Assembly: GCA_008632985.1 (NCBI GenBank)
Contig: QPGO01000170.1
Span: 124,001 to 160,339, forward strand
Reading direction: 5' to 3'
DNA from: Psammoneis japonica
Taxonomy: Eukaryota
Length of the DNA: 36,339 nt
Shown: in pieces, positions 3,524 through 25,189 of the stretch
Numbering within the stretch: the stretch's first letter is position 1
Layout of the letters: each line of letters begins with the position of its first letter
Made by a program: the position numbers and the translations under genes
Notes under the pieces: model-generated
Told to the model about the DNA's origin: nothing
What the model saw: only the letters and a program-made list of their open reading frames with translations
The model's database searches: none

Positions 3524-3925
3524 GATGGCAATGTTGCCATGTTGCTGTTTTCTTGAAACCCCACAGAAAACAATGCACTGCAAGCATGGGTTTTTTTCTG
3601 TTGACAATGTTCTTGGCAGAGAGCCCACATGCAACATTTTGCAGGTGCAGCATTGCATGGAGATCTGCCTGTCAGTGCTGGGGTGCATCAATCTTTGTAG
3701 CTGCTCAACACCTGTCTCCCAATTTGCACTCAGCGGAGAAGAGCCAATGGAAAGAAGGTGCATTTCTCAAACCTTCAGCTTTGAGATGGCACAATTTCCA
3801 CTGATCTGGTGTGTGTCCTCATGGGGCTCTGTTGACAGTGACAGCTGGCAACAACGCTGGATGGCGCTGTTGCCATGTTGCTGTTTTCTTCAAACCCCAC
3901 AGAAGCAACACACTGCAATCATGGG
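3524..3925 (+). repeat. ~66-bp dispersed direct repeat pair (3524-3590, 3860-3925)
   Basis: gatggcaatgttgccatgttgctgttttcttgaaaccccacagaaaacaatgcactgcaagcatggg vs gatggcgctgttgccatgttgctgttttcttcaaaccccacagaagcaacacactgcaatcatggg. Confidence 0.8.
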
Positions 3926-4348
3926 TGAGTTTGTGCACACACAAAATTTCTTTTTAAGGTGCTTTTGACAGTCACTGGTTGGTTCATCAGCACCACCTGA
4001 TGTTTTGAGTGCAGAGCTCACACACAGCATTCTGGCGTGGGTGCAATGTCCATCTGGGACGCCAACAATCTGGGTCTGACCATCTGCCATGATCTGGGCA
4101 TTTGTTGACTTCAATGCCAGATTGTTGTCAACTTATGAGCCAAGTCTCTCCTCAAACACAATGTGAGAACCACACAAGTTTGCAAGCTTCTAAAACCCAA
4201 ATCGCTTCCCACTTTTAAGTGCGGTCATTCTTTTCACACAATGGCGACCTGCACCTCAATTGACATTTGCAGTTTCTTGTTCTTTTGTCACAAATGTTGC
4301 TGCTTGTAATCCACTCGTCCTGCATTTTGTCTCTTTGCTGTGTTGTTT

Positions 4349-5536
4349 TCAAATCCAAACTCCCAACTGCCACACGTTCTTGCATCTAAACCGCTTTGCA
4401 GAAAGTTTTTCACATTTTTGCTTTTCTGGATTTTGTTGTTTGTGTTTCAATTTGCACTTGCACACCAGTTTGGTTGGCCACCATTGCAGCATTTGCCACC
4501 GCTCCATTGCCTGCAGCCACCGCCTGCAATGGCAGGTCCTCTCCCATCGGCACCGCCCATCCTTCCTCTCTCTCCTTTCTCTTTTCCTCTCTTTTGCGTT
4601 TCTTGTTTTCCTCCTTGGACAAGCTCGTCTTCTCTTGCCTTCTCTCTCCTTGAACCATGCACCGAATCCCTGGTTGTTCTCTCTGTCTTTCACCACCCAC
4701 TGGCACAGATCATTGTGCTTCTTGATCCCCTCCTTGCTCCATCCTTGGTTCCTCTTTGCCAATTCCCCCACTGCCTGCGCTGTGTGCTTTGCAGGAGCAG
4801 AGTCTTTCACTGTCAGCTTTCTTCTCCTTGCAACATTTTCTTCCTTTTCCAATTTCTCGGCCGTGTCCTTCACCTTGTTGCAGTGGCTCAAGTGCACTGG
4901 CAGAGCAAACGCCTCTGACGAAATGGAAAGCCACTCCTGAAGCATGTCGGTTGTGCTTCCACCAAACTGCGCTTGTCCCACCACCATCGGCACCACAGTT
5001 TCCAAGAACCATGCGCGTGTGTCCTTGTCATTTCTTCCCTTTGTCAAATCTTCACAATCCACCAGCGATCCCTCTAAAGCAGCAACTGCACAGATGAAAG
5101 CAAAGGAAGCAACACTCATCCCGTTGGACAATCGCCTCCAACACAATCAAAGGCGCGCACACATCTGCTTGCCTGTCATTCTCCTCCCAATGTTGTCCTG
5201 CACATTGTTCCTCTTTTGGTTGAGTTTGGTTCTGAACACCTCTTTGCATTCTTCCCAGAATGCCTCCGGTGAAGACGCCATGCTCCTCAACTCCTGCAGA
5301 ACCAATTTCATGCAATCTCCTCCTGCAGCAAGTTCTTGATCAAAGATTGTGAACTTGCCATGTGGCCAAACACTTTCATTGATTGCCTTTGTCAGCACAT
5401 CAATGCTGTCAATCTCTCGCCCACCGCTGGTGCATGATCCAACACAAGACATCCCTCTGTGGGAGTCACCACCGAACTTGAATCCCCACCTGTGCCTGGA
5501 ATCTGTTTGGTTTCCCATGTCCATTTCTTTGTGCAT
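4349..5536 (-). pseudogene. Decayed two-exon gene, transposon-associated hypothetical protein
   Basis: ORFs 5147-5536 (VWPHGKF...FWEECKEVFRTKLNQKRNNV) and 4349-5146 (SSEAFAL...KHT...GWSKEGIKKHNDL...KDR) join in frame (M-T-V-A-A-L-E-G) if an 87-bp intron 5172->5086 is removed. The motifs resemble proteins I recall beside diatom Plavaka-like transposases (unverified). Confidence 0.5.
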
Positions 5537-6307
5537 GCAACAAGGCCGCCACCGCAGGACTCATGGTGACTTCATGTGACACCACACAGGTGAGCCCAAT
5601 TCAGTCAGTTCTTCAGCAACTCTTTGTCATGTCCTTTCTCAACCTCACTTGCTGCTGGAAGTTGCGCTTCCTCCCTCCATTGCTCCTGTGAGAACTGCAT
5701 CTTCCATCCTTTTTACCTTCCCAATGGCTTCCTCTCATTTGGAACTTCTGTCCTTTCCTGTCACTTTATGAACAGGCAAGTTGCAAAATGAATGCACTTT
5801 GCATGTGATTTTCTCTGTTTTGTTGTTGCTTGCATGTCCTCTCTTGATTCAAACATGTCTTTGCATCATTTTTGAGTGCTCATTCCCAACCCCATGTTTG
5901 AATTTCTGTCAACCTTCCACTGTTTTGAATTGCGCACCTTTGCCAGCCAATCTACAACACACCAATGAAAATTGCAACATCATTTGGGTCAATGTCAAAC
6001 AACACATTTTACACTCTTGCATTGGTGCATGCATTGTGCCTGCTTCCTGATGCAACATCAGCTTCATTTGGTTCAATGAGGTGTGTCAAACCTCCTGTTT
6101 GTTTGTGCAAATCCACATTGCTCATTGTCTCTTGTCAATTCATCCCTGTCTCAATCAGTCATTCTCTCTGTTTCCCCTGCACCACATCTCTCCAATTGCT
6201 CTCTCTGTTGCCCAAACTGTCCAGCCCACTTTCCAGTTGTTCAATGTGTGTGTGCATCAGCAAAAGCATCCGTCCACAATTTCACACATTCCCTTTTTAG
6301 TCCTCCA

Positions 6308-7072
6308 ATGGCTGCCAAAGCATGTCATTGTCACTGAGATGTGGTCGTTGTGAGTCGTTCCTGTTGTGGGAACGTGCGCTCCCTCCATCGCAATCACATG
6401 CAGCCAACTGATGATCAAATTGGTTGTTTTGCTGGTGGTGGCGTGGAATCACACGGCAGCATGGCAAGCTTTGCCTTCTTCACTGAGGTTGTTTGTAACC
6501 CTGCTCTCCTTGTGGCCCAAACTTGCAGCCCTTTTAATTTCATTGACATTGGTGGTGGTGTTGCCGGTTTTGCGATTGCCTGTTGTTTGCTTGTTCCTTT
6601 CTGCAATGCCTGCAGCATTGAGTTCCACCGCCCCCCTCATGATTTGGGCTCTCAGTGGTGCAATGCCATCTGGCCTGACCACACCAGTTGCTGTCCCACC
6701 CTGATCAATCAGGACTTCCTCTCTGAAGATGATGCTGTGCGTCAGTTGTGCCGTCAGAACAACTTAAAGATTTTCTTCAACAACTGCAATGGGCGAATGC
6801 TTTTTGACGACAATGCAACACAGAACCAACTCAAGGAGATGCTGCCCAATGAGTGTCCTGAAGGTGCTGTCATCATTTCGCTGGACGTGATGTTTTGTGC
6901 GCATGCCCACAAATGGAGGCATGAAGCATTCTTTGTTCCTGCCTGTCCAGACGATCCATCATGGGGAGGCAGTGTCAACAGGCACCCACTTCACAAGTGC
7001 ACCAAGAAAAGAGACGATGCCGTGGAGCCAAGGCATTCCACCAGGAATGACCCAGGGTCTGACATCAAATGA
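6308..7072 (+). pseudogene. DOT1-like (H3K79-type) class I SAM-dependent methyltransferase, hypermutated
   Basis: Motifs in DOT1 order: HGS (cf. YGE), FIDIGGG (cf. FxDLGSG), SIE (cf. GIE), QDFL, IFFNN (cf. IFVNN), PEGAVIISL (cf. KEGGRIVSS). ATG at 6308 is in frame, with a TGA at 6335 (plausibly CGA->TGA). Confidence 0.65.
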
Positions 7073-7234
7073 AAATTTGAGCCCGCCAAAAGTGGGCAAC
7101 TTGGCACTTTCCCTTTTTTTGTGTGACTTTCTTCCATGCAAGCAATGCATTGTCAATTGGCCCTTCGCACAAACTTGCTTTTTACCTTTGCTGACTTGCT
7201 GCTCAGCCAGTTTTGCATTCCAACAACTGCTTGT

Positions 7235-8243
7235 TCACACGCTCACTGTGTCGAAATTGTGGACTGGACATGCCATGTTCCTTTGATCCGAGTTCTTTTT
7301 GTCAGGCAAAGCTCGGTGCAACATTCTTGCATCAAAAACAAATGCAGTGCCTGCTTCTCCAACCAGCAATTGTTTTTCCAAACCCAACCTGACCAAGTGT
7401 TTTTTGCATTCCTTCTCATTCAATGTTGCCTCACAACCATCCAGCCATGTCTCAACTGCACCATTGTCCTCCATTGTGTCATCGAGGAACAGAAACATGG
7501 TGAAAATTTTGTCGCCAGGAAACAATTCTGTTTCCACGCAATCACAATGAATTTCCCCCTTTGACCAGAAGTTTGATGTTGAGCTTGAAAACTTGAAGCA
7601 GGGGCGTTTGCTGCTGTGTGCCGGGATGTCTTTCTGCATGAATCACCTGCTGGGGGAAAGCCAGGAATTGACCCCAACATTTTTCTGCCAACTCAATGCC
7701 TTCCGCCTTGTCCTTTTTGTCAATGATGAACTCACTGACAAAACGGTGTCCTTCCTTCTCTTGCTTGCTGCTTGGTGCCTTGTTTGCCAGGGTTGCAATC
7801 TTGTTGAACAGGGGTTGTGGTGTTTTGAATTTTTGCAAGCAGCCTTTTTTTCCTTCCTGGTGCACTCTTTCTTTGGACCCGGCCATCTTGCTCTTGACGA
7901 CATGAGATTTCATTTCACCCGGGTGTGCCAGTAACTTGCTGTGTTTCTGACATGATGTTGTCGGCCAATGGGCAAATTTCCAGCATCCGTCAACAGAACA
8001 CTTTTGCACCATTCTCTGAACATGCCGGCTCCACCAAATCAAATGGAACCCAGTCTTTTTTTTTAAGCAGAACAGACCCAATTCAGCGAAAGTCCGCATC
8101 CATTGCTGTGCAATGAGCATGGCTTTCTTGTGAAATCTGTGTTGCCAACGGCATCTGTTGGGTGCACGGCAGACGTTTTTTTCGTAAATGGTCCAGTGTG
8201 ATGTGATCTTCGTCCATCCTCTTTGCTGCATGATCTCATTCAA
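7235..8243 (-). pseudogene. PhyH-like 2OG-Fe(II) dioxygenase, frameshifted and hypermutated
   Basis: GEIHCD (HxD), TMFLFLDD..DNGAVETW, GEAGTAFVFDARMLHRA (distal His) and a downstream Arg in ORF 7235-7639. The N-terminal part probably lies in ORF 7542-8243, with a frameshift near 7560. Confidence 0.65.
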
Positions 8244-8435
8244 TGGGTCATCCCAGCTGTCTCAAAGCACAGAAAACAATTTGGTTGCACACTGTCTTGT
8301 CAGTGTTTTTGTGTGATGTTTTCATGTTGACACCGCGGCCAACACAAAGGAACAGCCACCATCCACCATTCATTCCGCACCAAAAACAAACTCTTTTAGA
8401 ACAATGTGTGCAATGAACAACTGCAAATGATGCTT

Positions 8436-8735
8436 CGGTGTCACTTTTTAATTGACACACCCACATGTCAACAGATCAATTTGGTGCCATTTTTTGTTGA
8501 TGCACTTGTCTGCCAACAGACCAATTTGGCACAACTTTTTCATTGTTGCACACATGTGTTGACATGTGTGTTTGGCATCACTTTTTTGTTGACACACCTG
8601 TCTGTCAACAGAGCAACTTGGTTTCACTTTTTTGTTTTGCACATGTGCGCCAACAGAAGAATTTGGTGTCACTTTTTTGTTGATGCACCTGTCTGTTGAC
8701 AGATCAATTTGGTGTCACTTTTTTGTTTGCACACT
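8436..8735. repeat. Degenerate tandem array, ~45-bp unit, ~6-7 copies
   Basis: Consensus approx. ttggtgtcacttttttgttgacacacctgtctgtcaacagatcaat, with an internal inverted pair TGTTGAC...GTCAACA. Confidence 0.85.
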
Positions 8736-9024
8736 GAACAAAAGCCAGTGCATTGTCGTGACATAAAGTGGATCTCCCGCAGCAAACCACATTCTCCCAA
8801 ATCTGGTCCAAGTCGCTGATCAACGCATTTTGAGCAGCAAACGGACAACGTTGGGGCAACTCTGTCTCTTGTCCTCCGCAGCCATGTCATTCCCTTTGTG
8901 AAACAATGACCTCAACATGATCCCACCCCAAAGAATGCCTCCCAATCCCTTGCCTGTTGTGCCACGTTGCTGAAATGGAGCTGACGAATCTCTTTTTTGT
9001 CCGGCGCATCGCACTTCTTTCCTG

Positions 9025-10544
9025 ATGACATTCCACCCAACTCAACCTGACATTGCTTTGCCACTGCCATGTCACAAAACAGCGTTGGCCAACATTCCAT
9101 CTGGCCGTTGTCCCCCATCGGTGCATCCAGCCCCGTTTGGCACAGAAAACAGCCTTGACACAAAATTGAGGCTGCATTGTTCTCCCACACGTTGGGTGAA
9201 CAAATGCGGTCACGTTCATTCATCACTCAAAAAAAGGGGTTTGACAGACCACTCAATCCGCGGCATTGTGCTGATGATGTTTGGTGCAAAAATCTTTGCG
9301 TTTGAGAGCAGTGGGAAGAGCAATGCATGCAACCCAAACCGCCTTGGTGAACTTGCAAAATGGCCGGCACATCCAAGCTACATTGGATTGGCTTTGAAGA
9401 GGGCTCCCAGAGCTGGCTCAACGAAAGAAAAAAAGGCATGCAGAAAAATCATTGATGTGCACTGCCTCCAAACCAAAAAATGCAAAAGATCTGTGGTGGT
9501 TCAGGTGAGGGATTGCATCTTGCGCACTGCTTCCATTTCCCATCTGTTCCTCACCCAACAAAATGCATGTTGATTTCTCCTAGAATGAAAGCAAAGCTAA
9601 AAGTCAAATGATTGCCACTGGTGTTGACTCCGGTGTGGAGGCTGCCCATGACTGTGACAATGACACAACTTGGGCAGAGACGGATGTCATGGATGACGAA
9701 CATCAAATTTTGACTGGGGCAGAGAGTGAAGAAGTGTTGCCAGCAAGGGATTGCATCTGTCGCACCACTTGCATTTCCCATCTGTTCCTTGCCTGACAAA
9801 ATGCATGTTGATGTCTCCTGGAATGAAAGCAAAGCTAAAAGTCAAACAATTGCCACCGGCATTGACTCAGGTGAGGAGGCTGCCCATGACTGTGACAACA
9901 ACACAACATGGGTGGAGACGGATGACATGGATGACAAATGTCAAATTTTGACTGGGCCAGAGAGTGAAGAATTGTTGCATGATGCTGGCAGATTGTTGAC
10001 AATTGGCATGGAAGTCGGTGGTGATTTAAATGGAAGTGACAAAGATGCGCGCAACAGCATTCAAACTCAATGCCTGCAGGATCTTGGATGTGATGTTTGC
10101 ACAATTGACAAGAAGACATGCGCTGTGCTTCCTCACTGAAGCACACAGAGTGCGATGTTCTAAGTTTGCACAGATCAGCGGAATGGAAGAGATCATCCAA
10201 AGAGACAAAGTTTGACCGCACTTGCTTTGACTGCGTGCATTCAAACCCAGCGCATCTCTTGGCTTCAGTTCTAAAGGGACCTTTTTTCCAAGATGCACTC
10301 AAGGAGCTGCTGCTGTTGCTGACGGAAAATGGGATTTTCTTCTTGCCTGCATGCAATCTTGCTTTTTCCAAATTTTGGGTCAAATGGAAGAAACAACACA
10401 TGTCGGAAGAGTGCCCAATTTGCTTCTTGCGTGAAGAGCAAGCACAGAACAAGGTCCCCATCCTTTGAGACAAGGCACAAGTTGACATCTCTGCCTGCGG
10501 AAAGTTTTGTGCAAGGGAAGAGTGCACAAAGGATCATGAGTTAA
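9025..10544 (+). pseudogene. Decayed multi-exon gene with duplicated acidic exon and possible C-terminal methyltransferase-fold domain
   Basis: Phase-0 introns 9505-9583 and 9743-9821 join ORF 9025 (...VVVQ) to two NESKAKSQ...ESEE exons. Downstream FDRTCFDC...LTENGIFFLP weakly resembles class I MTase beta4/beta5. Confidence 0.45.
9505..9978 (+). repeat. 238-bp tandem duplication of an intron+exon unit
   Basis: 9505-9742 aligns with 9743-9978 (gaatgaaagcaaagctaaaagtcaaa at 9583 and 9821). Many differences are TG<->CA swaps. Confidence 0.92.
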
Positions 10545-13157
10545 AACATGAAGAAGTGAAATGGCTCACACAACCAGGTGAAGCTGTGTTGGCGCATTTT
10601 CCAGATTTTGGAGGTCCAGTCAAATGCATCGGATTGGCCAGAAGAAGAAAGGACCCTTGCCATGTTCCAGTTTTCACCGGTGGCAACTGTGTGCATTGTC
10701 CAACATGCAGTCTCAAGAGACAGAGCATTTTCTGCAATGCCCATGTTGCAGGCCGGCTCCCATCCGGAATGCTGTGCAGTTTGATCTTGACTGCAAAGAT
10801 GCACCTGACTCTGCATGTGGAACAAAAAACAGCAAGAAAACCAAGGAAGAATCTCTCCTCCACCAAATCAAAAAGTGCAACGCCAATCTTGTCAGTTGTT
10901 GGAGGAAGAAGGGCCAACCACATGGGGCGGGTGGCAAGAACTGGGGTTTGTTGTCAATGCGTCCCAAAAGCCTTGGTGACAATTCCAACAACAAAAGAGA
11001 AGTCAAGCAAAAGTTCCACCTGAAACAACCTCGCCGGAAGTCCAACAAGCTGTCTGATGCGTTCGACAACAACATCCTTTTTGTTGAAAAACCAGGCAGG
11101 GAGGGAACGAGGTGTTCCCTCATCATCCACTTCAAGCTGCGTGCAATGCACATGGTGTGATGGGTCCAAATGCTTTAGAGCAAATGAGTCGGCACCTTCA
11201 ATGCAAGGCAGAGATTCTGCACTCGGGTGCCAACCACCCGCACCGGGCAAGTGATCCAACTCATCCATTTGTTTTGAACCCAGATGCAATGGAGGGAATC
11301 ACCAACAATGCTGTCTTCAGGTCACGCAAGTTTGACAAAAGAATTCTTGGACTCGGTTTGTCAACGCAGCTCAGAGCCATTGTTGAACAGGGGCTGAGCA
11401 GTGGGTCAGCACGAGAGTTTTTACTTGCTGCAAAGTTTGACCATTCATGTCGAGGCACTGTGCCAAAGATTTTGGCATGAATGGAGTGATTGCTCAAGGG
11501 TGGAGCCGCAATGGTGGATCAGGTGTTGCAAAGCCTGGAATGACAGAAAAGGAAAAAGACCTCTCTGCCAGGTGCAGACAGTGGATTTTGCAGCTGACCG
11601 TGATTTTGGTTCACGTCATGTGCCAAAAAGCTTTGCATGGAACACCAAGGTCTTCCCAAGGAGAAATGTTGGAGTGAAGATGAAGGTTGTCTGAGAAATG
11701 CCAAGCCTGGTTGGGTTGCCCAGAACAATTGCGAGGTGTGTTAAAGCTCAATGAGGCAGGATCTCACATTGCCGGTTTTCCTCTAAAACACTTTGACTCA
11801 GAAAATGAGCGGGAATTCCTCTTGGATGACATTGGCAACGGTGTTGTGTTCATTGATGATTGGCGGGGTTGCAACACTGGCAAAGATTTGGTGGATGAGC
11901 TGAGAAGGCATTCGGCACCCATCACGAACACAATGTTTGACCATCTGTTGCAAAACAGAGAGATCGTCGGAGTTCAGTTACAAAAGCTGCTGTTCAAGAC
12001 GGATTGTGAACATGCAAATGCCCCATTGGAACAACTGGAATCCCTGACAGATGGCTTCAACCTTTCCACAATGGAAAACACAGATGATGTTCAGTGCGCC
12101 ACCCAACACATTGGGGATCACCTTCAGTGATTTGACAGTGGCGACCATGAGGGCATGTTGGGATTGCTTGTTGATGAAGGCTCAGACAGAGACCTTCTCC
12201 TGGGATCACCCACAGCTGGTTCAATTTCACATTTCACTGTGAGGGGCATGTTGCTTTCCACCACAGAGACGAATTCGCGGCATTTGTGGGCATGGAATTC
12301 AATGGCGCACCTCTTGTTGCATTGAGGGAATCTGTGAAACCTGAAAACCAAGAATCTGTGAAGACTTTGTTGCAGAAAAATGAAGTGGGATTGTTGCGCC
12401 ACCAACTGGTGTTGATGATGAAGCAACTGAAGAACAACGGCAACATGAGCGGAACAACGTGTTCAATGTTGCAGAGATTTCAATGCATGGATCCTTTGTT
12501 GACCAACATTGAAGAGATGCAAATCTGCTGTGCATTCATTTCCAGTCAATTTGACACTCTGCAGGCAAAGGACACTGGCGGAAGTCACGAATCTGCCAGG
12601 GAACTTTTGTTTTGTCGAGAAGCCAGGAAGAACAAATCACCCAAGCAGTGGTTGCCAAGCAAGAGGTTGGGCGATGTGCGCGTGGCTTTGACGATCCAAT
12701 CGGCTTCCGCGATGGGACAAATCCCCCCTCAAAATGCGCAGTGGCATGCACATCCAAGGGCAACTCTGGATTTTGTCTCTTTGTCAGCATGTGTGTTGTC
12801 AGGAAGGAAGCACATGCGAGAGGTGAATGGATCTCCTTGTTGAAGGCAAGGGAAGTTGTTCAAAATGCAATTGAAGTTGCAAGAAAAAATGGCAGAAGAC
12901 CAACTTGGGCCAAATGTGACCAACTGGGCTGCAGGGAATGTCGATCAATGAACAACAAGTTGTGTGAGGATCCATGCCACCTCACATCTGGCGAGTGGGG
13001 TGTGTTGCCCGTTCCCTCTTTGGAACATTCGAACAAGTCGACAAGCGGTTTGTGGCCTGATGAATCAGAGCACAGGATTGAATGTTTTGTTGGTGACCAA
13101 TGGTGTGATTTTGTCAACTCATGTCAGTGTTTGCTCTTGAGTCAAGTCAAAGCATGA
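10545..13157 (+). pseudogene. Large decayed coding region, function unknown
   Basis: Consecutive protein-like plus-strand fragments (11687-12130, 12286-12843, 12612-13157) broken by TGA stops and frameshifts. No family recognised. Confidence 0.4.
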
Positions 13158-13400
13158 ATGGATGAAGCAGAAGGGTTTGTTCCAATTCCGAGAATCGAAA
13201 CTGAGCGGGACCAACCAGCACTTTTAGACAAATTAGCAAGATCTCACTGTTCGCTGCACTTGCTGATGGAAGGACCAACAAGGAGTGGAACCAACAGATG
13301 CTTTTAGATGGGTTGACACGCCTTCACAGCAAACTCATTAGAACACTGACAGAGTGCTTAAAAAAATTTACGAGCGTTTCCTTTTTCCCAAGGTGCGTTG

Positions 13401-14560
13401 TCATTTCTCTTCATCTCGCTTCCTGCGTTTGTCTGAGTGAAGCTGGAGCACTTTGTTGGACAGGAAATAATTTGGCCAGTCATTGTGTCTGTCTGCAACA
13501 AACAACAATGAGTTCGAGCATCCCGCTGCTTCAACATTGTCTCCATTGCAGTTGTTGGGAACCAGGACAGAGAAACCACCCGCTGTAATTGCGTCTCTGC
13601 CAGCATGCCAAAATTTTGGGACATGCAATGTCTTTGTCTGTTCCTTGCATGACTGTCCTGCGGCAAGTGGCGTTGTTCCGTCATCAGCCAGTGCAAAACC
13701 ATGGAGCACAAAAGGGTGCCTTTTTTTCTGACCGGTTCCCTCTTTGCACAAGACCCTGGGTGTGTCACACCACAACCCATTGTTGTTGCAATTGGGGTGT
13801 CCATGAATTAAAATCCCTTTCTCTGGCATGGCAAACTCCGAGCAAACAACAATTTCATCATGCTTGGTGGACAGTTCCTCCGTTGGCAACAACAAAAAAT
13901 GAAGCAGGGTGGAGTCCACTTCTGCAGTTTCCGGGACAACCCGGATCTTGTTGCTGCCTGAACACTGACAGCAAGTTTGGGCAGTTCTGTTCACAACAAA
14001 CAAGGGGTGCATCAATTTTCTTCAGAGGAAGATGCGCTTGCCTGGCCAACCATGGGATGGATGAGAGGGCTGCATGCCTTCTCGAGAACTGCCATGTCAT
14101 GCAAACGAACAACAAGTTGGTCCAAGAAATTGTCTGCACCCAAAGCAACCTGGCAAGTTTTTGCCGGAAGCTTGGCCCAGAACTTCAGGTGACTCTCTCC
14201 AGTCATGGCAGAGAAATTTGCAATCTGGCCACAAAGGAAAGAGTCGACAATGAGATGCAGCATAGAATGGAACTTGGTGGTCCGGAACAAACTGGTGTTC
14301 CTTGTGCGATGAAGGCAAACTTTTGTCTTGAACATGAGCAGGATGACGCGGCACTTGAAATCCACCTTTCCTGTTTTTTCATGGAGTCCCTTGCTGCAGA
14401 GACAAAACAAATGGAAAAGCAGCACATGATGCAACAAGTCCAACAATTCATCAACTCCACAATCGACGGATTTTCATGAAAGAGTCAGGAAGTTTGTTTT
14501 CCATTTCTGCACAAATGACAGTGCTTGGCAATTTTGACTTGGTGAGAAGAAAGTGCCATC
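13401..14560 (-). pseudogene. Plavaka-like transposase, C-terminal portion (left of the copia insertion)
   Basis: TKFHSMLHL...GQIANFSAMTGESHLKFWAKLPAKTCQ (14012-14446) and IHGHPNCNNNGLWCD (cf. HPNY...WYD) in ORF 13401-14015. Confidence 0.7.
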
Positions 14561-14565
14561 TGTCT
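14561..14565 (+). repeat. 5-bp target site duplication TGTCT (left copy; right copy 21609-21613)
   Basis: ccatc-TGTCT-tgacagg at the left end; ctgtca-TGTCT-gctc at the right end. Confidence 0.95.
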
Positions 14566-14841
14566 TGACAGGATTTGAACAGGATTTGGATGCGCGCGAA
14601 GCATCGCGCGCTGTTTAGTTTGCCGTGCACAGTTTTGTGTGCTTTAGTTCCGCGCGTTCACGCGCGATGTAGTTTGCTTTCGAGCCACAAGGCTCACAAG
14701 AACAATGACAGCAGCCCGATTATACCGACTTGCACGTCTTTCGGCTCCTGCAACGGTCTCTGAGCGGAGACTCATCTGCCATTTAGACAGCAGCAAGGAG
14801 TCATTGTTTGAATTCTTGCCATTTGCCTTCAATTTCTGTCA
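14566..14841 (+). repeat. 5' LTR (276 bp)
   Basis: Ungapped alignment to 21333-21608 with 12 mismatches; TG...CA ends with a 6-bp inverted terminus. Confidence 0.97.
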
Positions 14842-14858
14842 GATTGACAGTCTTGCTC
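14842..14858 (+). promoter_or_regulatory. Putative primer-binding site, half-tRNA type
   Basis: gattgacagtcttgctc directly follows the LTR. Its reverse complement GAGCAAGA-CTGTCAA-TC resembles an anticodon arm, and there is no TGG complement to a CCA end. Confidence 0.45.
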
Positions 14859-15715
14859 ATTGTCAACCCATTGAGCAACCGCCATCATCGTCGTTGATTT
14901 TCCAACGACGCTGTTTTTAATTCTGCGTGGACCTCCGTACATGTTCTACATGCATCGGCAAGTCTGCGCGCATTCAATGCCAGGGCATCGGCAGGAAGTT
15001 AACGTCACCGTCAAGTCTCCTCACCGCTGGACATCTGGATTGATCATGCTACCTTTGATCGCTGAAGACATACATTCAACGGTCACATCCAAGTCCATCC
15101 TTGATCCTCATCCCTTGATGTACCTGTTCACATCTTCACGGCCAAGAACCTGCACCCACTCTTCGGACTGCGGTTTTGCTGCCACTCTGCAAGCACACCG
15201 AGTCCATTGCACCTGATCTACCCCGGACCACTGGTGCTCTGCAGTTCCACTGGGTCCACGAGGACGACTGTGAGAGCAAGCAGCCGTGATTGCAGCCTGC
15301 GTTGGGGCGAGGGTGCTTTCCCGCGTTTGTTCGTTCGTCCACAGCGCCTGACGCCTACGTCAACTGGCCAGCCTGATCGGGAAATCCAACCGATGTAAAA
15401 TGAGAACGGTTCGGGGGTCTTGTCCACCTCTGGTCAGCTTACCTGCAGGGGTTTACAACCCGCTGCTCCGCTCGTAAGCAACCCAAAGCGCCACCAGCTG
15501 CGGGTTCGGACGTGCCGGCACAACTCTACGGACCGGATAGGAAGTTTAGCACTCAACAACGAACGGGATGACAAAGCCCGGCGACTTCTGATTTTTAAGA
15601 TAGTTCAAGATTTCAAGTCAAGTCTGTTTCAAGTCAAGTCCACTCTCACCCAAGTTTCGAGTCTACCTTCGCTTCCCAACCAGAATTGATTGTCCTGACA
15701 CCATTTTTGTCTACC

Positions 15716-18700
15716 ATGGTTCTCACTCGTCAGCAACAAACCGATGGTTTCGAGCACGTGGTTGGAACCGTGCTTGCCCAAGGTGCTGGGAGTCCTCTTC
15801 GTTTGGCTTTGGCCCAAGACGGCACGGACTCACATCAGGAACTATTCACGTTCATGCCGTCCCAAATCGACTCGCTTGAGTGCGACAACGGCACTAATGC
15901 AATCCCTTTGCCCCGTGGTTGTGAGAACATGTTAGCAGCACTGGTCAGTCTGTACATTGTTAAAGCACACAAAGGTCTTGACGTTGCCAACGACTCCTCT
16001 TTGTTCACGCATGACGAGTTCCTTGCCTGCCGCCTCAGCCCCGACTGCATGTCTTCTGTGTCCATCGGCAGCTCACCCCTTGCACCTCCACATGTCACCA
16101 ACCCGACCAAGGCACGCGACCCGGTGCGAGACTTCAAGCGAGGCATCAAGCGTGATCCCACCGCTTTCACGGCTCTCAAATCCGACAAGCAGTGGCACAC
16201 TTGGCACACCTCACTTGTGGCACAAGCCCGTGCCCAAGACGTCGAGTGCACTCTAGACTCGTCGTACAAACCGACCAGCCCCGAAGACAAACTGCTCTTT
16301 GCTGAACAGCAAAAGCACATGTTCGCCGTCTTCGAACGCATCCTTCTCACCGACAAGGGCAAGGCTCTCATTCGCGAAAATGTGGGGTCCTCTGACGCAC
16401 AGACCGTCCACCGCTCCTTGTCTGCACACGCGCTTGCCTCCACCCGTGCATCTGTCGAGTCCTCCACCCTGCTCACGCACCTCACCACCGCACGTCTTGG
16501 TGATGGCACTTGGAAAGGTCCGACCCACGGGTTCATCCTTCATTGGCAAGATCAGTTGCGCAAGTACGAGGCACTCATCCCCGCCAGCGACCACTTCTCT
16601 GAAGGACAGAAGCGCGTCATGCTCGAGAATGCCGTGCATCCTGTCGAGGAACTCCGTGCTGTCAAGAACCAAGCTGATCAGCATCGTACGCAGAGTGGCA
16701 AGAGCCTCACATGCGATCAATGCTGTGGCTTGCTCCTCTCCGCGGCAGCTCAGTGCGACAGCACGTTTCAACCCAAGACGACACCTCGAGCTCCCCGACG
16801 CGCCATGTGCGCACACGACGTCTGCTCCGAGGAACCGTCCGACGATGTGTTCTACGACATTGACAGCGACGTTGACGTCCTTCAAGCCAATGCTGCCTGC
16901 ACTCGTGGTCCCAGCCTCACCGGTGTCCAATGGAGACGTCTCCCTCCCGACCACCAACGGCTCTGGGATTCGTTGCCCGATTCCACCAAGGCGATCATCC
17001 TCGAGCACTCTCGTCCGCCTCCCCGCAACCCGCGAGCCAGTGACCACCATGAGTCTGTTATGGCCAACCTTCACGACCAACACCTTGGGAGTGACGGTGA
17101 TGTCAACTTGTCCAACACGACTCCTGCTGACTGTGGTGACCCCGCCACACATGTGGATGCCACTTCGGATGATCCCATCCTGGCGCACCTCACCAAGCGC
17201 AAGCCACTGCCACCCGGTGATCTGCAACGTCTGTTGTCTCCTAACCAAGCCCCCAATGCCAGTCGACCGGGGCCATCCGCCGCTTCCTCCACCCCGCCAG
17301 CTTCTGCAGATGACATGGAACTTAACGGCCGCACTTGCCGCCGCGTCAACAACCACAATGTCATTTGCTCTGCCTCTGCTCATCGCTCCACACGCACTGG
17401 CGCTCTAGTCGATCGTGGGGCCAACGGCGGCATTGCTGGCGACGACGTTCGCATCATTGCACGCACCTCTCGCCAAGTCGACGTTCAGGGCATCGACGAT
17501 CATCAATTGGTGGACATCCCCATTGTCACCGCTGGTGCCGTCATTGAGACCCAGCGTGGTCCCGTCATCGCCATCCTCCATCAGTGCGCATGCACGGGAA
17601 AGGGCAAGACCATCCACTCCTGCGGCCAGCTCGAATGGTGCAAACAGGATGTCAACGATCGCTCTGTCAAGGTGCCCAACGGCTTGCAACGCATTGCCAC
17701 TCCTGATGGCTGTGTCATCCCCATTGACATCAAGGCTGGCCTGCCTCATGTTGCCATGCGACCTTGCACTGACGCCGAATGGGACACCCTGCCCCATGTC
17801 ATCCTTGCCGGTGATGACACATGGGACCCTTCCGTCCTCGATCACTCTGTCACTGACGACGACCAGTGGTGCGACGCGATCTCTGATCCACAGGACGATC
17901 CCACTGCCAACCTGTTTGACGAATGCGGCAACTGCCGTCACCGTGTCATTGTCAACGAGACCATCTTGTCCGCTTCCTTGTCTGCCGATCACGCGTCCGC
18001 CCTCGATGATCACCTCATTCCGAACGACGACGTGTTCTACGAGTGTCATCTGCATGCGATTGACCCCACGGGCGATGACGTTCCACCTCCGGAGCGCACT
18101 GTAAAGCCCAAGGACCCCCCCTTCGAGTCTCTTCGGCCTTGCTTTGGCTTCCCACCTGCCGATGCGGTCCGTCGTACTTTTGACTGCACCACGCAGCACG
18201 CCCGCATGCCCGCCGGTACACACCTTCGCAAGGCCTGCAAATCACCCAACCCCGCCCTTAATGTGCACCGCCGCAACGAGCCCATCGCCACTGACACCGT
18301 TCATGCCGACACCCCGGCCGTCGACTCTGGTTGCACCAGCGCCCAACTGTTTGTTGGCACCGAGTCTACCGTCACTGACGTCTGCGGCACTGAGACGGAC
18401 AAAGAGTTTGTCAACACACTCGAGGATCAGATCCGTGAACGTGGTGCACCATCCAAACTCATTAGCGACCGTGCTCAAGTTGAGATCAGCAACAAAGTGC
18501 TCGGGATCCTACGCGCCCTCTTCATCTCCAGCTGGCAAAGTGAGCCTCACCAGCAACACCAAAACTTTGCCGAGCATCGATGCCAGACTGTGAAGCGCAT
18601 GGCGAACACTGTCATGGACCGTTTTGGTTCGCCCGCCCACACATGGCTGCTGGCGCTCATGTGCGTGTGCTTCATGCTCAACCATGCAGCATCCCCACGT

Positions 18701-21385
18701 CTCCACTGGCGCACGCCCCTCGAGACTCTCACTGGATCCACCCCGGACATCAGCCCATTGCTTCGCTTTCACTGGTGGGAACCAGTGTGCTTCCACCTCG
18801 ATGACTCCGATTGGCCGTCCGAATCTCGTGAGTTGCGTGGACGCTTCGTTGGCATTGCTGAGCACGTCGGCCACCAGATGACCTTCAAGATTCTATCTGA
18901 CGAGACTCAGAAGATCCTCTGCCGGTCCAACGTTCGCTCCGCCACCCCCGATCCTGCCGTTCGAAACCTGCGTCTTGATCCTCCTGATGGGGAGCCACCT
19001 GAACCCATCATCAAATCTCGCCATGACGACAACCCCGTCGATTCTCCTGATGGGGAGATCAGGACACCCAAGATGCCAGTTTTCGATCCGCAAGACATCA
19101 TTGGACGTACCTTCCTCATGCAGCCACAAGAGGATGGACAACGCCACAGAGCTCGCATCGTCAAGGCCGTCGAAGACCACGAATGGAAAGTGAACGGCAA
19201 TCCCGAGCTCACTAAGTTCGTCTGCTCTGTCAACAATGACGAATACGAGGAAGTCCTTGCCTGCAATGACATCATGAATCACATTGAGCAAGAAGACGAA
19301 GACACCACCATTTGGAAATTTCGACGCATCGTGTCACACGAAGGCCCTCTGAAGCCTCACGACCCAACCTGGAAAGGCTCAAGCTACAACATCATGCTTG
19401 AATGGGAAAGTGGGGAGATCACGTCCGAGCCTCTTGCCATCATCGCCAAGGACGACCCCGTCACCTGTGCCATCTATGCACGAGAGAACGGACTCCTCGA
19501 CACGGATGGATGGAAGCGGTTCCGCACCATCGCGAGGCGCCAAAAGAAGCTATTTCGCATGGCCAACCAAGCCAAGCTTCGCTCCTTCCGCACTGCACCT
19601 CGCCACAAGTGCGGATGCGAAGTTCCCCGGAACTACAAACACGCCATGTCACTAGACGAACACAACGGCAACCGCAAGTGGGGAGACGCAACTAATCTCG
19701 AGATGGACCAACTCGACGAATACGAAGTCTTCCATGACTGCGGGCCCTTCAAGTCTTCCACTCCTCCTGCGGGACACAAGAAGATCCGAGTCCACCTGGT
19801 GCACGACGTGAAACACGACGGTCGCCACAAGGCACGACTCGTAGCCGACGGGCACCTCACGGACGTACCTGTCGACAGTGTCCACTCCGGAGCAGTCTCC
19901 CTTCGTGGCCTTCGGCTGATGATTTTCCTGGCCGAACTCAACGAGCTGGAGACATGGGCCACCGACACTGGCAATGCCCACCTTGAAGCCACCACCAAGG
20001 AGAAGCTTTACATTGTAGCTGGACCCGAATTTGGCAAACTCGAAGGACACATCCTTGTCATCCACAAGGCACTGTATGGACTCCGCAGCTCCGGTCTCCG
20101 CTGGCACGAGCGCTTCGCCGACTGCCTGCGAGCTGAAGGCTTCTTCCCCTGCCGCGCCGAACCCGACATTTGGATGCGCAGGAACGGCGACCACTGTGAA
20201 TGCATTGCCGTTTATGTGGATGACCTCGCCATTGCCATGAAGGACCCTCAATCTTTCGTCGACACTCTCACGGAAAAGTGCAAGTTCAAGCTCAAGGGTG
20301 CGGGACCCATTGAGTTCCATCTGGGTTGCGACTTTTCCCGGGACCCCGACGGAACCTTGTGCCTGTCTCCGCGCAAGCACATCGAGCGCATGGTCGACAG
20401 CTGCGCCCGACTGTTTGGGGAGAAACCTGCCACCAATGCCCTGTCACCTCTAGAGAAGGGTGACCACCCCGAACTGGACACTTCCGAACTGCTGGGACCC
20501 GATGGCATTCACAAGTTCCAGTCTCTTGTTGGTTCACTCCAATGGGCAGTGTCCCTTGGTCGAATTGACATTGCCACGGCCGTCATGTCACTCTCTAGCT
20601 TCCGAGCTGCACCCCGTCAAGGCCACTTGGATCGTGCCAAACGCGTCTGTGGGTGCCTCTCCAAGATGCGACACGGTGCTCTCCGCGTTCGCACGGAAGA
20701 GCCCGACCATTCGGATCTCCCTGCTCCGGCCTACGAATGGATGCATTCCGTGCATGGTGAAGCAGAAGAGATGATCCCGAAGGACGCTCCACCGCCCCTT
20801 GGCAAGTTCGTCACTGCCACCCACTGCGTCGATGCAAACTTGCACCATTGCATGCTCACCGGACGCTCTGTCATGGGAATGCTCCACTTCCTCAACAAAT
20901 TCCCGGCTGATTGGTTCTCCAAGAAACAAGCCACCGTGGAGACTGCAACCTGCGGATCTGAATTTGTTGCCGCAAGGAATTGTGTTGAGCAGATTGTCGA
21001 CCTGCGCATCACCCTGCGCCACCTTGGCGTCCCGATCCGTAATGTCAGTCACATGTTCGGTGACAACAAGTCGGTTGTAGACAGTGCCACCATCCCGCAC
21101 TCCAAGTTACACAAGCGACACACCGCACTGTCGTTCCACCGTGTGCGTGAGGCAATTGCCTCTGGTTGCCTTGAGTTCCACTTCATCGAAGGCTCCCGCA
21201 ACCCTGCTGACATTCTCAGCAAGCATTGGGGTTGCTCCCAAATCTGGGACCTTCTCCGCCCCCTCATGTTCTGGAACTTCATTCCATCCGAAGTCGAATC
21301 TGTTTCTGTGGCTCCTCAAGCAAACTGGGGAGTGACAGGATTTGAACAGGATTTGGATGCGCGCGAAGCATCGCGCGCTGTTTAG
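15716..21385 (+). CDS. Copia Gag-Pol polyprotein (open frame, missense-riddled)
   Basis: ATG at 15716 (MVLTRQ). Protease LVDRGANGG (~17405); integrase ATDTV / ISDRAQVE / QNFAE (~18285-18575); RT KARLVADGH, KALYGL, YVDD (~19830-20225); RNase H VDAN, GSEF, FGDN, NPADILSK (~20830-21225). Confidence 0.95.
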   Translation: MVLTRQQQTDGFEHVVGTVLAQGAGSPLRLALAQDGTDSHQELFTFMPSQIDSLECDNGTNAIPLPRGCENMLAALVSLYIVKAHKGLDVANDSSLFTHDEFLACRLSPDCMSSVSIGSSPLAPPHVTNPTKARDPVRDFKRGIKRDPTAFTALKSDKQWHTWHTSLVAQARAQDVECTLDSSYKPTSPEDKLLFAEQQKHMFAVFERILLTDKGKALIRENVGSSDAQTVHRSLSAHALASTRASVESSTLLTHLTTARLGDGTWKGPTHGFILHWQDQLRKYEALIPASDHFSEGQKRVMLENAVHPVEELRAVKNQADQHRTQSGKSLTCDQCCGLLLSAAAQCDSTFQPKTTPRAPRRAMCAHDVCSEEPSDDVFYDIDSDVDVLQANAACTRGPSLTGVQWRRLPPDHQRLWDSLPDSTKAIILEHSRPPPRNPRASDHHESVMANLHDQHLGSDGDVNLSNTTPADCGDPATHVDATSDDPILAHLTKRKPLPPGDLQRLLSPNQAPNASRPGPSAASSTPPASADDMELNGRTCRRVNNHNVICSASAHRSTRTGALVDRGANGGIAGDDVRIIARTSRQVDVQGIDDHQLVDIPIVTAGAVIETQRGPVIAILHQCACTGKGKTIHSCGQLEWCKQDVNDRSVKVPNGLQRIATPDGCVIPIDIKAGLPHVAMRPCTDAEWDTLPHVILAGDDTWDPSVLDHSVTDDDQWCDAISDPQDDPTANLFDECGNCRHRVIVNETILSASLSADHASALDDHLIPNDDVFYECHLHAIDPTGDDVPPPERTVKPKDPPFESLRPCFGFPPADAVRRTFDCTTQHARMPAGTHLRKACKSPNPALNVHRRNEPIATDTVHADTPAVDSGCTSAQLFVGTESTVTDVCGTETDKEFVNTLEDQIRERGAPSKLISDRAQVEISNKVLGILRALFISSWQSEPHQQHQNFAEHRCQTVKRMANTVMDRFGSPAHTWLLALMCVCFMLNHAASPRLHWRTPLETLTGSTPDISPLLRFHWWEPVCFHLDDSDWPSESRELRGRFVGIAEHVGHQMTFKILSDETQKILCRSNVRSATPDPAVRNLRLDPPDGEPPEPIIKSRHDDNPVDSPDGEIRTPKMPVFDPQDIIGRTFLMQPQEDGQRHRARIVKAVEDHEWKVNGNPELTKFVCSVNNDEYEEVLACNDIMNHIEQEDEDTTIWKFRRIVSHEGPLKPHDPTWKGSSYNIMLEWESGEITSEPLAIIAKDDPVTCAIYARENGLLDTDGWKRFRTIARRQKKLFRMANQAKLRSFRTAPRHKCGCEVPRNYKHAMSLDEHNGNRKWGDATNLEMDQLDEYEVFHDCGPFKSSTPPAGHKKIRVHLVHDVKHDGRHKARLVADGHLTDVPVDSVHSGAVSLRGLRLMIFLAELNELETWATDTGNAHLEATTKEKLYIVAGPEFGKLEGHILVIHKALYGLRSSGLRWHERFADCLRAEGFFPCRAEPDIWMRRNGDHCECIAVYVDDLAIAMKDPQSFVDTLTEKCKFKLKGAGPIEFHLGCDFSRDPDGTLCLSPRKHIERMVDSCARLFGEKPATNALSPLEKGDHPELDTSELLGPDGIHKFQSLVGSLQWAVSLGRIDIATAVMSLSSFRAAPRQGHLDRAKRVCGCLSKMRHGALRVRTEEPDHSDLPAPAYEWMHSVHGEAEEMIPKDAPPPLGKFVTATHCVDANLHHCMLTGRSVMGMLHFLNKFPADWFSKKQATVETATCGSEFVAARNCVEQIVDLRITLRHLGVPIRNVSHMFGDNKSVVDSATIPHSKLHKRHTALSFHRVREAIASGCLEFHFIEGSRNPADILSKHWGCSQIWDLLRPLMFWNFIPSEVESVSVAPQANWGVTGFEQDLDAREASRAV
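21322..21332 (+). promoter_or_regulatory. Polypurine tract
   Basis: aaactGGGGAG directly abuts the TG of the 3' LTR. Confidence 0.7.
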
Positions 21386-21608
21386 TTCACCGCGCACAGT
21401 TTTGTGTGCTTTAGTTCCGCGCGTTCACGCGCGATGTAGTTTGCTTTCGAGCCACAAGGCTCACAAGAATAACAACAGTAGCCCGATCATGCCGACTTAC
21501 ACGTCTTTCGGCTCCTGCAACGGTCTCTGAGCGGAGACTCATCTGCTGTTTAGACAGCAGCAAGGAGTCATTGTTTGAATTCTTGCCATTTGCCTTCAAT
21601 TTCTGTCA
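21333..21608 (+). repeat. 3' LTR (276 bp)
   Basis: Matches 14566-14841 at offset 6767. Confidence 0.97.
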
Positions 21609-21613
21609 TGTCT

Positions 21614-24601
21614 GCTCACCTTGCAAAGTTGTCCCGATCATCCGCCAAACCAACGACAAGACCATGTGGTCCGGGCATCAACAATTGATCAGGTGAAGTC
21701 TCAACAGCCCGTTGGTTCCGTCTCAATGATTTGGTTTCATCCCATGCAATCTTCTGGCACAACAAAAAGTGACCATCATCCAGTTGATTGGAAAATGGTT
21801 CCCAAAATTCAGAAAGGCCGTGACGATGCATCTGTTGCATCACACAGCAGGCGACATCCAACCATGTGCCTCTGGGAAGTGCAACAGGCACATTCTCATC
21901 AACCGGGCTTGTGTTTGTTTCACCAGTTTGTTCATTTGATGGTTCAACGGGATCAGGGTCCTCATCGTTGGGTCCACTTTCTGACAATTTGGTCAGTTGT
22001 TCTTCTTGTTGCTTCTTTCCTTTAAAGCCATCAGCCGTCTTTTTCTTTTTGCTGTCAAAGGATGGATCGCACCTTTTTTCCAGCAGTTTTCTGCCAGCGT
22101 GTGTGTGGCCAATGATGGCAAGTGCAAGAAGCTTGCCCACCTTCTCGTCACACACAAGTTGACTGAGTGTGGAAAGTCCCCCATCAACTCAAATTCGCGG
22201 ACAGTCACGTCTCTGACCAGGACGACAATGGGATGTGCAGAACAATTCAGATGCAATCTGGCCGCACTCCTCTTTCTGTTTGGCAGACATGTCTCCTGTT
22301 GTTGCCTCCATCATTTGAGGGACAATGCCCACCTCCAACACATGCATTGTGTCAGCAATGGTCATGCCAAATGCACCGCGTGGGCTGTCACCCATGCCAA
22401 GTGGAAAGTGAGCATTGTCCACCATGTGCTGTCCAAACACTTTCCTCAACATTTTGGAGCACACAGTCATTCGGCGAATGAGGGAGGAAGCCAGCTCAGT
22501 CTCGGCCTTTTTTTTTTGATGTCATTGCACGATGCTTCCGGGCAACGCTTTTGACATGCTGGTGCCAACAGCTGTTGTCATCCTCTGGATCTGGGCCCAA
22601 TGCAGCAACAGCGAGCAACTCTGTGAAAGCCTGGTCAAAGAATTGGCAGACATGGAGGGGATCATCAGAAAGGTGGGAGGGCACATGGCAGTTGTGAGAC
22701 AACCTCTTGGTCTTGCTTTGGCCCCATGTCTCTTCCACAAATGTGTTCTTGATTGAGGACATCCCCCAACAGGGAGTTGCAATGCATTGTGGCTCTGACA
22801 CAGCAGCATTGAGTGCCTGTCATTGCACGAACAATGGGTGGATTTGCCTGGCAATGAAGCAGACCACGGAGAACCTCCTTGAGAATGTGGTGGCAGTTGG
22901 CAACAACAAGGCACCCAAGCTTGTCTTTCTTGCATTTCTTGTCCAAATTGGGTGTGAATCCAAGTGGATGCCAACAACGACAGTCGCGGCGTGTGTCCTC
23001 TCGAATCATGGCAAGTGAGTGCATTGCAGGCTCCATCCCATGAGGATTGACCGCATCAACTCCAGTCTTGTCCGGGCATTTGACAAGGTGAATGTGAAAG
23101 TCAGAGGCTGTTTCCTTGGCATTGGAGCAATGTTGTTGCCACTCGCCATCACCCATGTCTTGACTTTGAGTGGACAATTGCCAGTCACCAGGACAATCCA
23201 GGAACTGCATCTCAACACTGTCAGCCTGGCCAGCACTGGAACCCAAATCACCGTCAGCAGTGGGTGGCACACAAGGTGACCAGATGTCATTTGGATTGAC
23301 CTGCAACTTGGAAAGATCACGGAACACTGGCTTGGCAAAGAGATCCTGCAAGGTCTTGGTGAAACTGCAAACTGGGAAAGGTGGGGAGTGACAACATTTT
23401 GGTCCATCCTTCTGTTGCTGCATTGGATTGTTGCATTCAAGCATCACAACAGCAGTGCGGGGGAGAGGAACATTGGGAAATGGCCCCAGGAGTTGCTTCA
23501 TTGCCACGGTGGTTGTGATGGGGGCTTTGACACATCCAGTCTTTTTTCTGCATGCTCTTCATGCTAAATTCTCATCACTTTGTCAATGAAGTCAATTGCG
23601 ACACCTGACCGATGACATGAATGATGCAAATGCACTGTGGGTGCAATGCTGGGTGAGTTGACTGGAGGTGCATCAAAGTCCTCATTGGGTGCAACATCAT
23701 GCACTGGGCCAAGAGGATTGTGTTGATTGAAGGAAGAAACAGGCTCTTCCATTGGACGGGAAATTGAGGGGGGCCCAGAACTGCCATTGAGATGGTCAGC
23801 TCCAATGAACTCGGGGACATCCACAGGACTGTCCTCTCCAAGGGCAGACACGCCATTGTCTGCAAACAAAACAAATTGGCGGGCATTTTGGGAGGCTGCA
23901 CTGGCAGCAGCAATGTTGGCGGCTAAACGCAATTGACCAGACCGTCTGATGGAGGGTGGGCGCAGTCCATTTCCGGCAGAGGGAGGGCAAGCTGGAGAAG
24001 AATTGTCCGATGGTGTGGGAGGAGATGGAGCTGGATTCCAAAGGACTTTGGGGAGGGGAGGAGGGGGTTTGTCATCGGCAAAACCAAACCCAGCAGGATC
24101 GTCATGGTCGTCCAGTGATTCATCATCTGCAGGGGGGAGTGCATTTGTGGCATTGGAAGATGCGGCATGCCGGCAAAGGGACATTTCCTCCTTTTTGCGG
24201 CAGGGCAAGTGCTTCTGTAGATGAAGGGCGATGTTGGAAAAGGGGACACGGCAATGGGGGCATTTGGGTTTGTTGGTGTTGGACCCAAGGGAGCCAACGG
24301 AGGCGGAATCCAGAGGATGAGAGGAAAGAGATGTTCTGCCGCATGGGGAAGACAATTGGGTTGCATGGCGCAACTGTGTCAATGGGGGATGAAGGCCAAA
24401 TGCAGCAGCACAGTGCCGAGATGGGTGACACTGCACATTGTTTTTGGAGTCAAATCCACATTGTCTGCAACGAGGACAACTGAAAGACTTGGTGGAAACG
24501 GCAGAACGGAGGCAGTTAGTTCTGATGTGCCTGCTGAGACCACGTTCGGAAAAGAAGCCAGTTTGTTTGCACCATGGACAAACAAGACCATCAGACAACA
24601 T
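21614..24601 (-). pseudogene. Plavaka-like transposase, N-terminal and core portion with C2H2-type zinc fingers
   Basis: ATG at 24601 (MLSDGLVCPWC...LSRH; CPRC; CPHC...LQKH). Core motifs PDKTGVDAVNPHGMEPAMHSL...WHPLGFTPNL, NCHHILKEVL, LLGD...ICG, VDNAHFPLGMGDSPRGAFGMTIADTMHVLEVGI. Several stops and frameshifts. Confidence 0.75.
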
Positions 24602-25189
24602 GGTCGATGTGCAGAGAAAAAGGAGTTGAGAAGAGAGTCGAAAGGAAACAGCATGTGCAGCAACAATCACTTGGGGATTTGGTGAGGGCAGAAACATGCA
24701 AAGAGAAACAATGTGCAATCAAGGGGGGAAGGCGTTGTGGACAGACGGGATGGAAGGATGGAAGGGGCAGGGAGAGAAAATTTAGAAGACAAGCAGAACC
24801 CACCTTTGCGAACACATGCGGCGATTTTGATCCAGAAAGTTGATTGACACACAATCCAGAAATTAACACAGAATTGAATGAACACACAAGGCTTGTCAGA
24901 TGGGGGGGTGAACAGTTGAATTGAGGAACACAGATGTTTGTTGTTGAACATTTCACAAATGCTGACTTGACAAATCAGCACGATCTTGGATTGAAGGGAG
25001 AGAATGTTGGGTTTTGTTTAAAGAAATCTTGACAGCCAGTGCAACACCTGGATCATTGGTGTCCCAGATGTCACAGAGAGTTCTGCCTGGAGCTGGGGCA
25101 TGCCAACCCATTTGCCACTGCTCAATGCTGGCGCGTGCAAGGCAAAACCACCTCTTCTTGATGTGCACACCCAGCCAGTGGCTGGAGCC

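Follow-up and report, generated by a model that had tools for sequence, protein, structure and literature searches.

Structure of the locus

The analysed window, a stretch of 36,339 nt from Psammoneis japonica, contains a Plavaka-like cut-and-paste DNA transposon, within which a Ty1/copia-type retroelement is inserted (Table 1). Paralogues of the transposon aligned over 4051-25070 and jumped the copia insert. The ends of the transposon are CATCTGGGA, and target duplications of 2-3 bp were found in all five copies having both ends. The family has at least 16 copies in its own genome; a DNA search of the 91-Mb assembly gave 25 matches and a protein search gave 34, among which no unmutated close copy was found. 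TA was nearly absent from the element, and CG was approximately halved. The transposase was recognized through relatives of the fragments: the region 22668-23558 of the minus strand had 175 relatives at E ≤ 0.001, and 11 of the 20 relatives scanned, out of 150 listed, matched the Pfam family Plavaka (PF18759), nine of them at or above the cut-off. The window's own transposase fragments gave no Pfam match.

The transposon has two coding regions that point away from each other, and a 46-bp tandem array of 6.5 copies (8437-8734), the copy number of which differs among the paralogues, separates them. A second, older repeat, with even stronger loss of TA and CG, was found on both sides of the Plavaka-like element (1700-4050 and 25071-28480); short shared repeats suggest that the element inserted into it. 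Short TA-rich inserts within two mutated copies (L012:2000-2500 and L014) are probably younger insertions. Ordinary host-like genes lie at 28773-30233 (minus strand), 30697-32454 (plus strand), and 34544-34738, and their features include one 63-bp repeat array, one FG-GAP repeat match, and one 105-bp tandem repeat. Two whole loci, L056 and L057, contain related elements, only 27% identical, which have retained far more TA and Tyr than the family of the window; the layout of L057 is like that of the window's element, and its opposite strand carries a transposase-like frame. These two elements, which are possibly younger or partly spared, are useful as less mutated references.

Table 1 Features of the transposon and its accessory gene in the window.
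Feature	Position	Strand	Remarks
Plavaka-like cut-and-paste DNA transposon	4051..25070	.	About 14 kb without copia insert; common ends in paralogues, termini, target duplications
Upstream exon (putative start)	8917..9504	+	Phase-0 end; broken in window copy; open in inferred pre-mutation state
Intron 1, 79 nt	9505..9583	+	Donor GTGAGG (from GTAAGG), branch CCAAC 9555-9559 (from CTAAC), acceptor TAG intact
Middle exon, 53 codons, 159 nt	9584..9742	+	Phase 0/0; acidic spacer; without sign of selection
Intron 2, 79 nt	9743..9821	+	Donor GCAAGG, branch CTGAC 9793-9797, acceptor now TGG
Downstream exon	9822..10700	+	Second acidic-spacer copy, then conserved domain; gene runs on past 10700
Ty1/copia-type retroelement within transposon	14566..21608	+	RVT_2 E=2e-25; 5-bp target duplication
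276-bp LTRs of copia insert	14566-14841 and 21333-21608		96% identical
Transposase gene fragments	22665..24718	-	Pfam matches via relatives

A duplicated intron-exon unit in the accessory gene

The repeat search of the window detected a tandem repeat at 9508-9978 (period 238, 2.0 copies, 87% matches, no indels), and self-comparison of the window paired the 238-bp repeat over 233 nt at 88%. An earlier note on this DNA had read the repeat as an intron-exon unit in two copies, with donors GTGAGG at 9505 and GCAAGG at 9743, acceptors CCTAG (ending at 9583) and CCTGG (ending at 9821), and a phase-0 exon of 159 nt, and all of these were found in place. Each unit is made up of a 79-nt intron and the 159-nt exon. 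The two copies differ at 33 bases, 18 of which form nine TG<->CA swaps; these are the donor and exactly eight others (9528, 9552, 9556, 9609, 9622, 9661, 9675, and 9701), where the note had counted at least eight. The remaining differences are three single-base transitions within TA or CG steps, ten transversions, and two at the unit end. One unit was present in two copies of the element and two units in 13 complete copies, a variation that is expected of a phase-0 module.

Before mutation, as inferred, the upstream frame was open and met a stop inside the first 79-nt segment, and the downstream frame, like the segment of 53 codons, began directly after an acceptor. When substitutions shared among copies outside TA and CG steps were counted, the upstream exon showed an excess of synonymous changes (14 of 32, p = 0.0065), in the reading frame only, and so did the region 9981-10697 (18 of 44, p = 0.0032), where the excess was absent from the other two frames. 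A strict donor-branch-acceptor pattern occurred in the inferred element at 9505 and 9743 only, and 200 Markov resamples contained it 0.21 times on average and four times at most. The signals fit the U2 type, with GTAAGG intact in one paralogue (L011), CT[AG]A in 25 of 29 introns, and YAG in 26 of 29. Among the shared indels, those of 30 and 33 nt, both in frame, fall within exons, and a 2-nt insertion falls within intron 2; this pattern was given little weight, since shared 1-nt indels were observed in the upstream exon too.

Alternatively, there might be no intron, the 238-bp repeat being a non-coding or degenerate duplication with splice-like motifs by chance. The 159-nt segment, which lacks a codon-position signal, agrees with this: no synonymous excess was detected in the duplicated spacer (6 of 38, p = 0.63, for the middle exon, and 3 of 18). 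However, the flanking frames, each with its own synonymous excess, are 317 nt apart, which is not a multiple of three, and excising the two 79-nt segments joins them. In addition, L054 and L055, which stand for two distant subfamilies, are each interrupted at the same codon boundary by a single intron, of 80 and 82 nt respectively; both introns begin with GCAAGT and end with CAG, although the interiors have diverged (51% alike, 48% when shuffled, versus 74% in the upstream exon). Homologues without an intron at this place had been named as evidence against the reading, and L054 and L055 carry one at the same boundary. The six elements L056-L061, which are more distant (25-28% identity) and fail to align in their upstream part, had no clearly recognizable intron at the corresponding position. 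We regard a chance origin of the motifs as improbable, and conclude from these sequence comparisons that the 238-bp unit is a real spliceosomal intron with its exon, in duplicate, a reading borne out by the frames, the branch motif, and a position kept in two distant subfamilies.

The downstream domain of the gene may be methyltransferase-like, as hinted at by weak matches: Pfam Methyltransf_11 was hit at E = 0.1 and 0.034 in single members, below the cut-off, and Atlas gave 0.84 for one query of the domain and nothing for another. Two structure models of the domain had low confidence (pLDDT 32 and 38) and no fold match, and sequence and fold searches of the PDB were empty. The region 9950-10300 is a conserved accessory domain common to the window and the distant element family L056-L061. 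No outside homologues of the intron-bearing gene were found in protein searches (longer proteins) or in a first metagenome scan; the sole match of a second metagenome scan (L053) was set aside as chance similarity within AT-rich DNA.

Ancestral dinucleotides at the swapped sites

The window and 14 paralogues (15 copies) were stacked column by column, leaving out a near-identical copy on contig C110, a redundant view of one copy, and a copy split into short pieces. Among 2707 pyrimidine-purine columns, 547 held both TG and CA, each at least twice, and 44 of 2737, 8 of 2867 (AA/GA/AG), and 10 of 3279 (TT/CT/TC) columns varied likewise in three control dinucleotide classes; the swapping thus exceeded chance. 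In the 547 mixed columns, the survivors were TA alone in 73, CG alone in 201, both in one, and neither in 272, and the two kinds of survivor were mutually exclusive across columns (Fisher p = 4e-15). The 456 TA-type columns, which take in the 272 columns without a survivor, where TA was inferred from the lack of CG, contained 2263 TG, 2184 CA, 481 TA, and 47 CG cells. Thus, approximately 10% of the cells in TA-type columns were still TA, 1% were CG (a second hit), and 90% were TG or CA, and about half of the cells in the 553 CG-type columns were still CG; columns in which every copy changed in the same way go uncounted, which biases these estimates of survival. Element-wide, 80% of the pairwise swaps were located at TA-type columns and 20% at CG-type columns. 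TG and CA were about equally frequent in most of the 15 copies, indicating that both strands were hit. Six real exon-3 translations contained no Tyr in 220-299 residues; in the inferred earlier state the Tyr content was 3.9%.

The proposal that TA was ancestral at the splice signals was supported by TA survivors at donor, branch, and acceptor in 29 units from 16 elements. The donor column contained CA in 17 units, TG in nine, TA in one, CG in one, and a gap in one; the branch column TG in 22, CA in four, and TA in three; and the acceptor column TA in 17, CA in nine, and TG in three. Less-mutated paralogues, to which the earlier note had pointed as a check, agree with this, because L011 retains GTAAGG and the acceptor TAG is kept in 17 of the 29 units. 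The branch of intron 2 was CTGAC in all 13 copies, and was thus probably already TG. The broader claim that every TG<->CA swap implies TA stood for only half of the other eight swaps: in the 29 units, TA survivors were present at 9552 and 9556, and 9528 and 9622 were TA-type by inference. Three swaps (9609, 9661, and 9675) came from CG, which is still present in 21, 6, and 18 of 29 units, respectively, and the swap at 9701 (CA 25, TG 1) was neither TA-type nor CG-type.

Changes from TA were largely independent copy by copy. Copies that were 3% apart at other sites had the same TG/CA outcome at 62% of sites, compared with 56% expected from site frequencies. The agreement was slightly above expectation between close relatives (0.60-0.67) and below it between distant ones (0.46-0.51), suggesting that some of the TG/CA states were inherited rather than new. 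No strand clustering of hits within copies was detected (|z| ≤ 1.6 in all eight distance bins).

The copia insertion and the direction of change

The copia insert was missing from the 99.7% identical copy on C110, indicating that it is younger than the transposon. The 12 bases that distinguish its LTRs all belong to TA, TG, CA, or CG steps: TA stands against CA or TG at five sites, TG and CA are swapped at three, and TG stands against CG at one. Of the 12 visible TA-type sites in the pair, eight have changed, and five sites retain TA in one LTR. The LTR pair shows the change from TA to TG or CA directly, and the activity was recent. LTR dating would overstate the age of the insertion, since all 12 differences are at mutator or CpG sites and the copy of the locus is 99.7% identical. 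The copia ORF, which is open over 1928 codons, had TA at 0.18 of expectation and CG at 0.93, implying that TA loss is separate from, and faster than, CG loss.

These results bear on the possibility that all TG/CA swaps arose by decay of methylated CpG, with CG as the ancestor. Such an ancestor holds for the 553 columns in which about half of the copies are still CG and for three of the eight swaps found besides the donor, and six of ten in-frame stops in real copies derive from CGA. On the other hand, the donor, branch, and acceptor columns retain TA and hardly ever CG, and the copia ORF lost TA without losing CG. CG decay is refuted at the splice signals by the TA survivors and stands as a second, parallel process; as the source of all the swaps it is very improbable.

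The opposite polarity, in which CA or TG would be ancestral and TA the product as in repeat-induced point mutation (RIP) of fungi, might also be considered, since a two-way comparison of LTRs has no polarity by itself. However, TA was depleted rather than enriched: in this window, repeat DNA other than copia (approximately 1500-28500) had TA at 0.0-0.2 of the expected level, and the flanks at 0.3-0.9. Moreover, TG and CA in one column require a shared TA or CG ancestor. Restoration of TA also yields canonical splice motifs and a normal Tyr content. We assign this polarity a negligible probability.

Damage to the splice signals

The motifs GTAAG, CTAAC, and TAG each hold a TA and hence would be hit like any other TA, each with one predicted harmless outcome (GTGAG, CTGAC, and CAG) and one predicted harmful outcome (GCAAG, CCAAC, and TGG). 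GT was kept in 11 of 30 donors and GC was present in 19, whereas the branch CT[AG]A was kept in 25 of 29 introns and the acceptor AG in 26, being lost in three. Nine of 29 introns kept all three canonical signals, and among the 13 two-unit copies a single one had both introns intact; the number of passing introns would rise to 22 of 29 if GC donors are functional. In the window, intron 1 combines GT and AG with CCAAC as its branch. In intron 2, the donor is GC and the acceptor is TGG, beyond which the next AGs are 8, 13, and 20 nt downstream, none of them in frame. The statement that the mutator destroys splice signals was therefore too strong: intron 2 is clearly broken, but intron 1 is still GT...AG. 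As judged from the motifs, the splice damage is partial and not total. GC donors have been given as about 1% of human introns (PMC3167603). The introns presumably were spliced once, and GC donors and CCAAC branches would impair their splicing here.

By the genetic code, a change from TA to TG or CA is unable to create a stop codon, and the in-frame stops of real copies came from CGA in six of ten cases. Without the power to make stops, the mutator would inactivate a gene through splice loss and missense changes. The window copy also bears frameshifts and a CGA-derived stop, so that splice loss need not be what killed it.

TA sites that survived

Acceptor 1 retained TA in 15 of 16 copies and acceptor 2 in two of 13 (p = 2e-5). 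The three bases on either side of the two acceptors are identical in most copies, and local context failed to explain the retention at acceptor 1; 18 other CTAG columns had TA in three cells in total. Among 314 well-covered TA columns, seven were protected like acceptor 1. T at -1 and -2 increased TA survival, but T at -4 did not: a protective T four bases upstream, which had appeared within the unit (10/10 versus 3/12, p = 0.0005), was rejected because TA survival element-wide was 0.086 with T versus 0.09-0.11. TA sites surviving in every copy examined were located at 9581, 10027, 6765, 13225, 13809, and 22023; they mostly have pyrimidines before and purines after, and like contexts elsewhere are fully mutated.

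Discussion

Taken together, these findings suggest, with a probability of about 85%, that an intron and an exon were duplicated within a transposon and that a TpA mutator then scarred the TA-bearing splice signals while CpG decay went on in parallel. The intron and its symmetric phase 0/0 exon would have been duplicated in tandem in the accessory gene while the Plavaka-like family was active. After the insertion of each copy, a mutator confined to repeat DNA would have turned TpA into TpG or CpA, by one A-to-G or T-to-C hit per site on either strand, scattered rather than processive. Slower CpG decay would have reached the same end states, TG and CA, from CG.

A similar process was recently reported for Bigelowiella natans, in which integrated NCLDV and virophage DNA undergoes TpA hypermutation (Mettrop et al., bioRxiv 10.64898/2026.01.13.699255, 2026 preprint). 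According to that preprint, TpA is changed to TpG or CpA on both strands of foreign or silent DNA only, the process is live in mutation-accumulation lines at a thousand-fold raised rate and on in some lines only, an ADAT2-like deaminase is the candidate enzyme, and transposons are proposed as further targets (bioRxiv 10.64898/2026.01.13.699255). The words "intron" and "diatom" are absent from the main text (bioRxiv 10.64898/2026.01.13.699255). The signature at the present locus matches the Bigelowiella case, as described there, in changes of A to G or T to C that are almost limited to TpA, occur on both strands, and, in the window, are confined to repeat DNA. In contrast, the Bigelowiella targets are single-copy viral inserts in which TA is still 0.45 of expectation, whereas here a multicopy DNA transposon has been changed almost to saturation and shows CpG decay as well. 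We conclude that the locus is a new case of this recently described process. A literature search that took in few subscription papers yielded nothing on the loss of TpA in diatom transposons or on how it affects splice sites.

RIP changes C to T at CpA/TpG, enriches TA, and is triggered by the pairing of duplicates in the sexual cycle. The process at the present locus is likewise a transition mutation at one dinucleotide, confined to repeats and acting copy by copy; unlike RIP, which makes TA and hence stop codons, it depletes TA and enriches TG and CA. Deamination of methyl-CpG in silenced repeats also yields TG and CA. It shares these end states with the TpA process and accounts for 20% of the pairwise swaps here, but leaves about half of CG and spares the splice signals except the exonic CCG before donor 2.

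As for the host element, PlavakaB of the CMCT clade comprises fungal families with termini CATCA..TGATG, target duplications of 2 or 3 bp, and accessory genes (PMC12730594). The element described here is similar in its Plavaka-family transposase relatives, CAT..ATG termini, target duplications of 2-3 bp, and accessory genes. It differs in its termini, CATCT..AGATG, which agree in four of five bases, the fifth being the exception, and in an accessory gene with a weak methyltransferase-like hint and without a TET/JBP match.

The mutator may be a host enzyme that acts as a genome defence. A competing explanation accepts the footprint as real and attributes it to a by-product of silenced chromatin, such as error-prone repair synthesis or a miscoding base modification, instead of a dedicated defence deaminase. 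The absence of strand clustering fits hits scattered over time, as such a by-product would leave, and A-to-G on one strand is the same as T-to-C on the other in sequence data. The specificity is nevertheless very tight for a by-product, with only 8 of 2867 and 10 of 3279 control columns varying and a second hit to CG in about 1% of cells, and polymerase-eta-type errors strike AA also. We consider this explanation possible, though on the unlikely side. A more far-reaching and equally doubtful proposal, within the reading of a TpA mutator, is that a candidate TpA editor akin to that of Bigelowiella defends a second and distant lineage of algae against transposons, that hits on splice signals are its chief route to null alleles without writing stops, and that TA sites of the acceptor 1 type are shielded by a factor other than local sequence, for example a bound protein or the placement of a nucleosome. 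If this were true, the duplicated acceptor pair would be a ready-made substrate test for the enzyme.

So far, a single preprint has described TpA hypermutation, in the viral inserts of one alga; here it is near saturation in a DNA transposon of another organism. The splice signals and the LTR pair fix the direction of the mutator, and the locus offers a simple way to tell TpA hypermutation from CpG decay, both of which end in TG and CA. As a consequence, gene finders meet disguised introns and Tyr codons in repeats of this kind, and dead elements may retain open frames.
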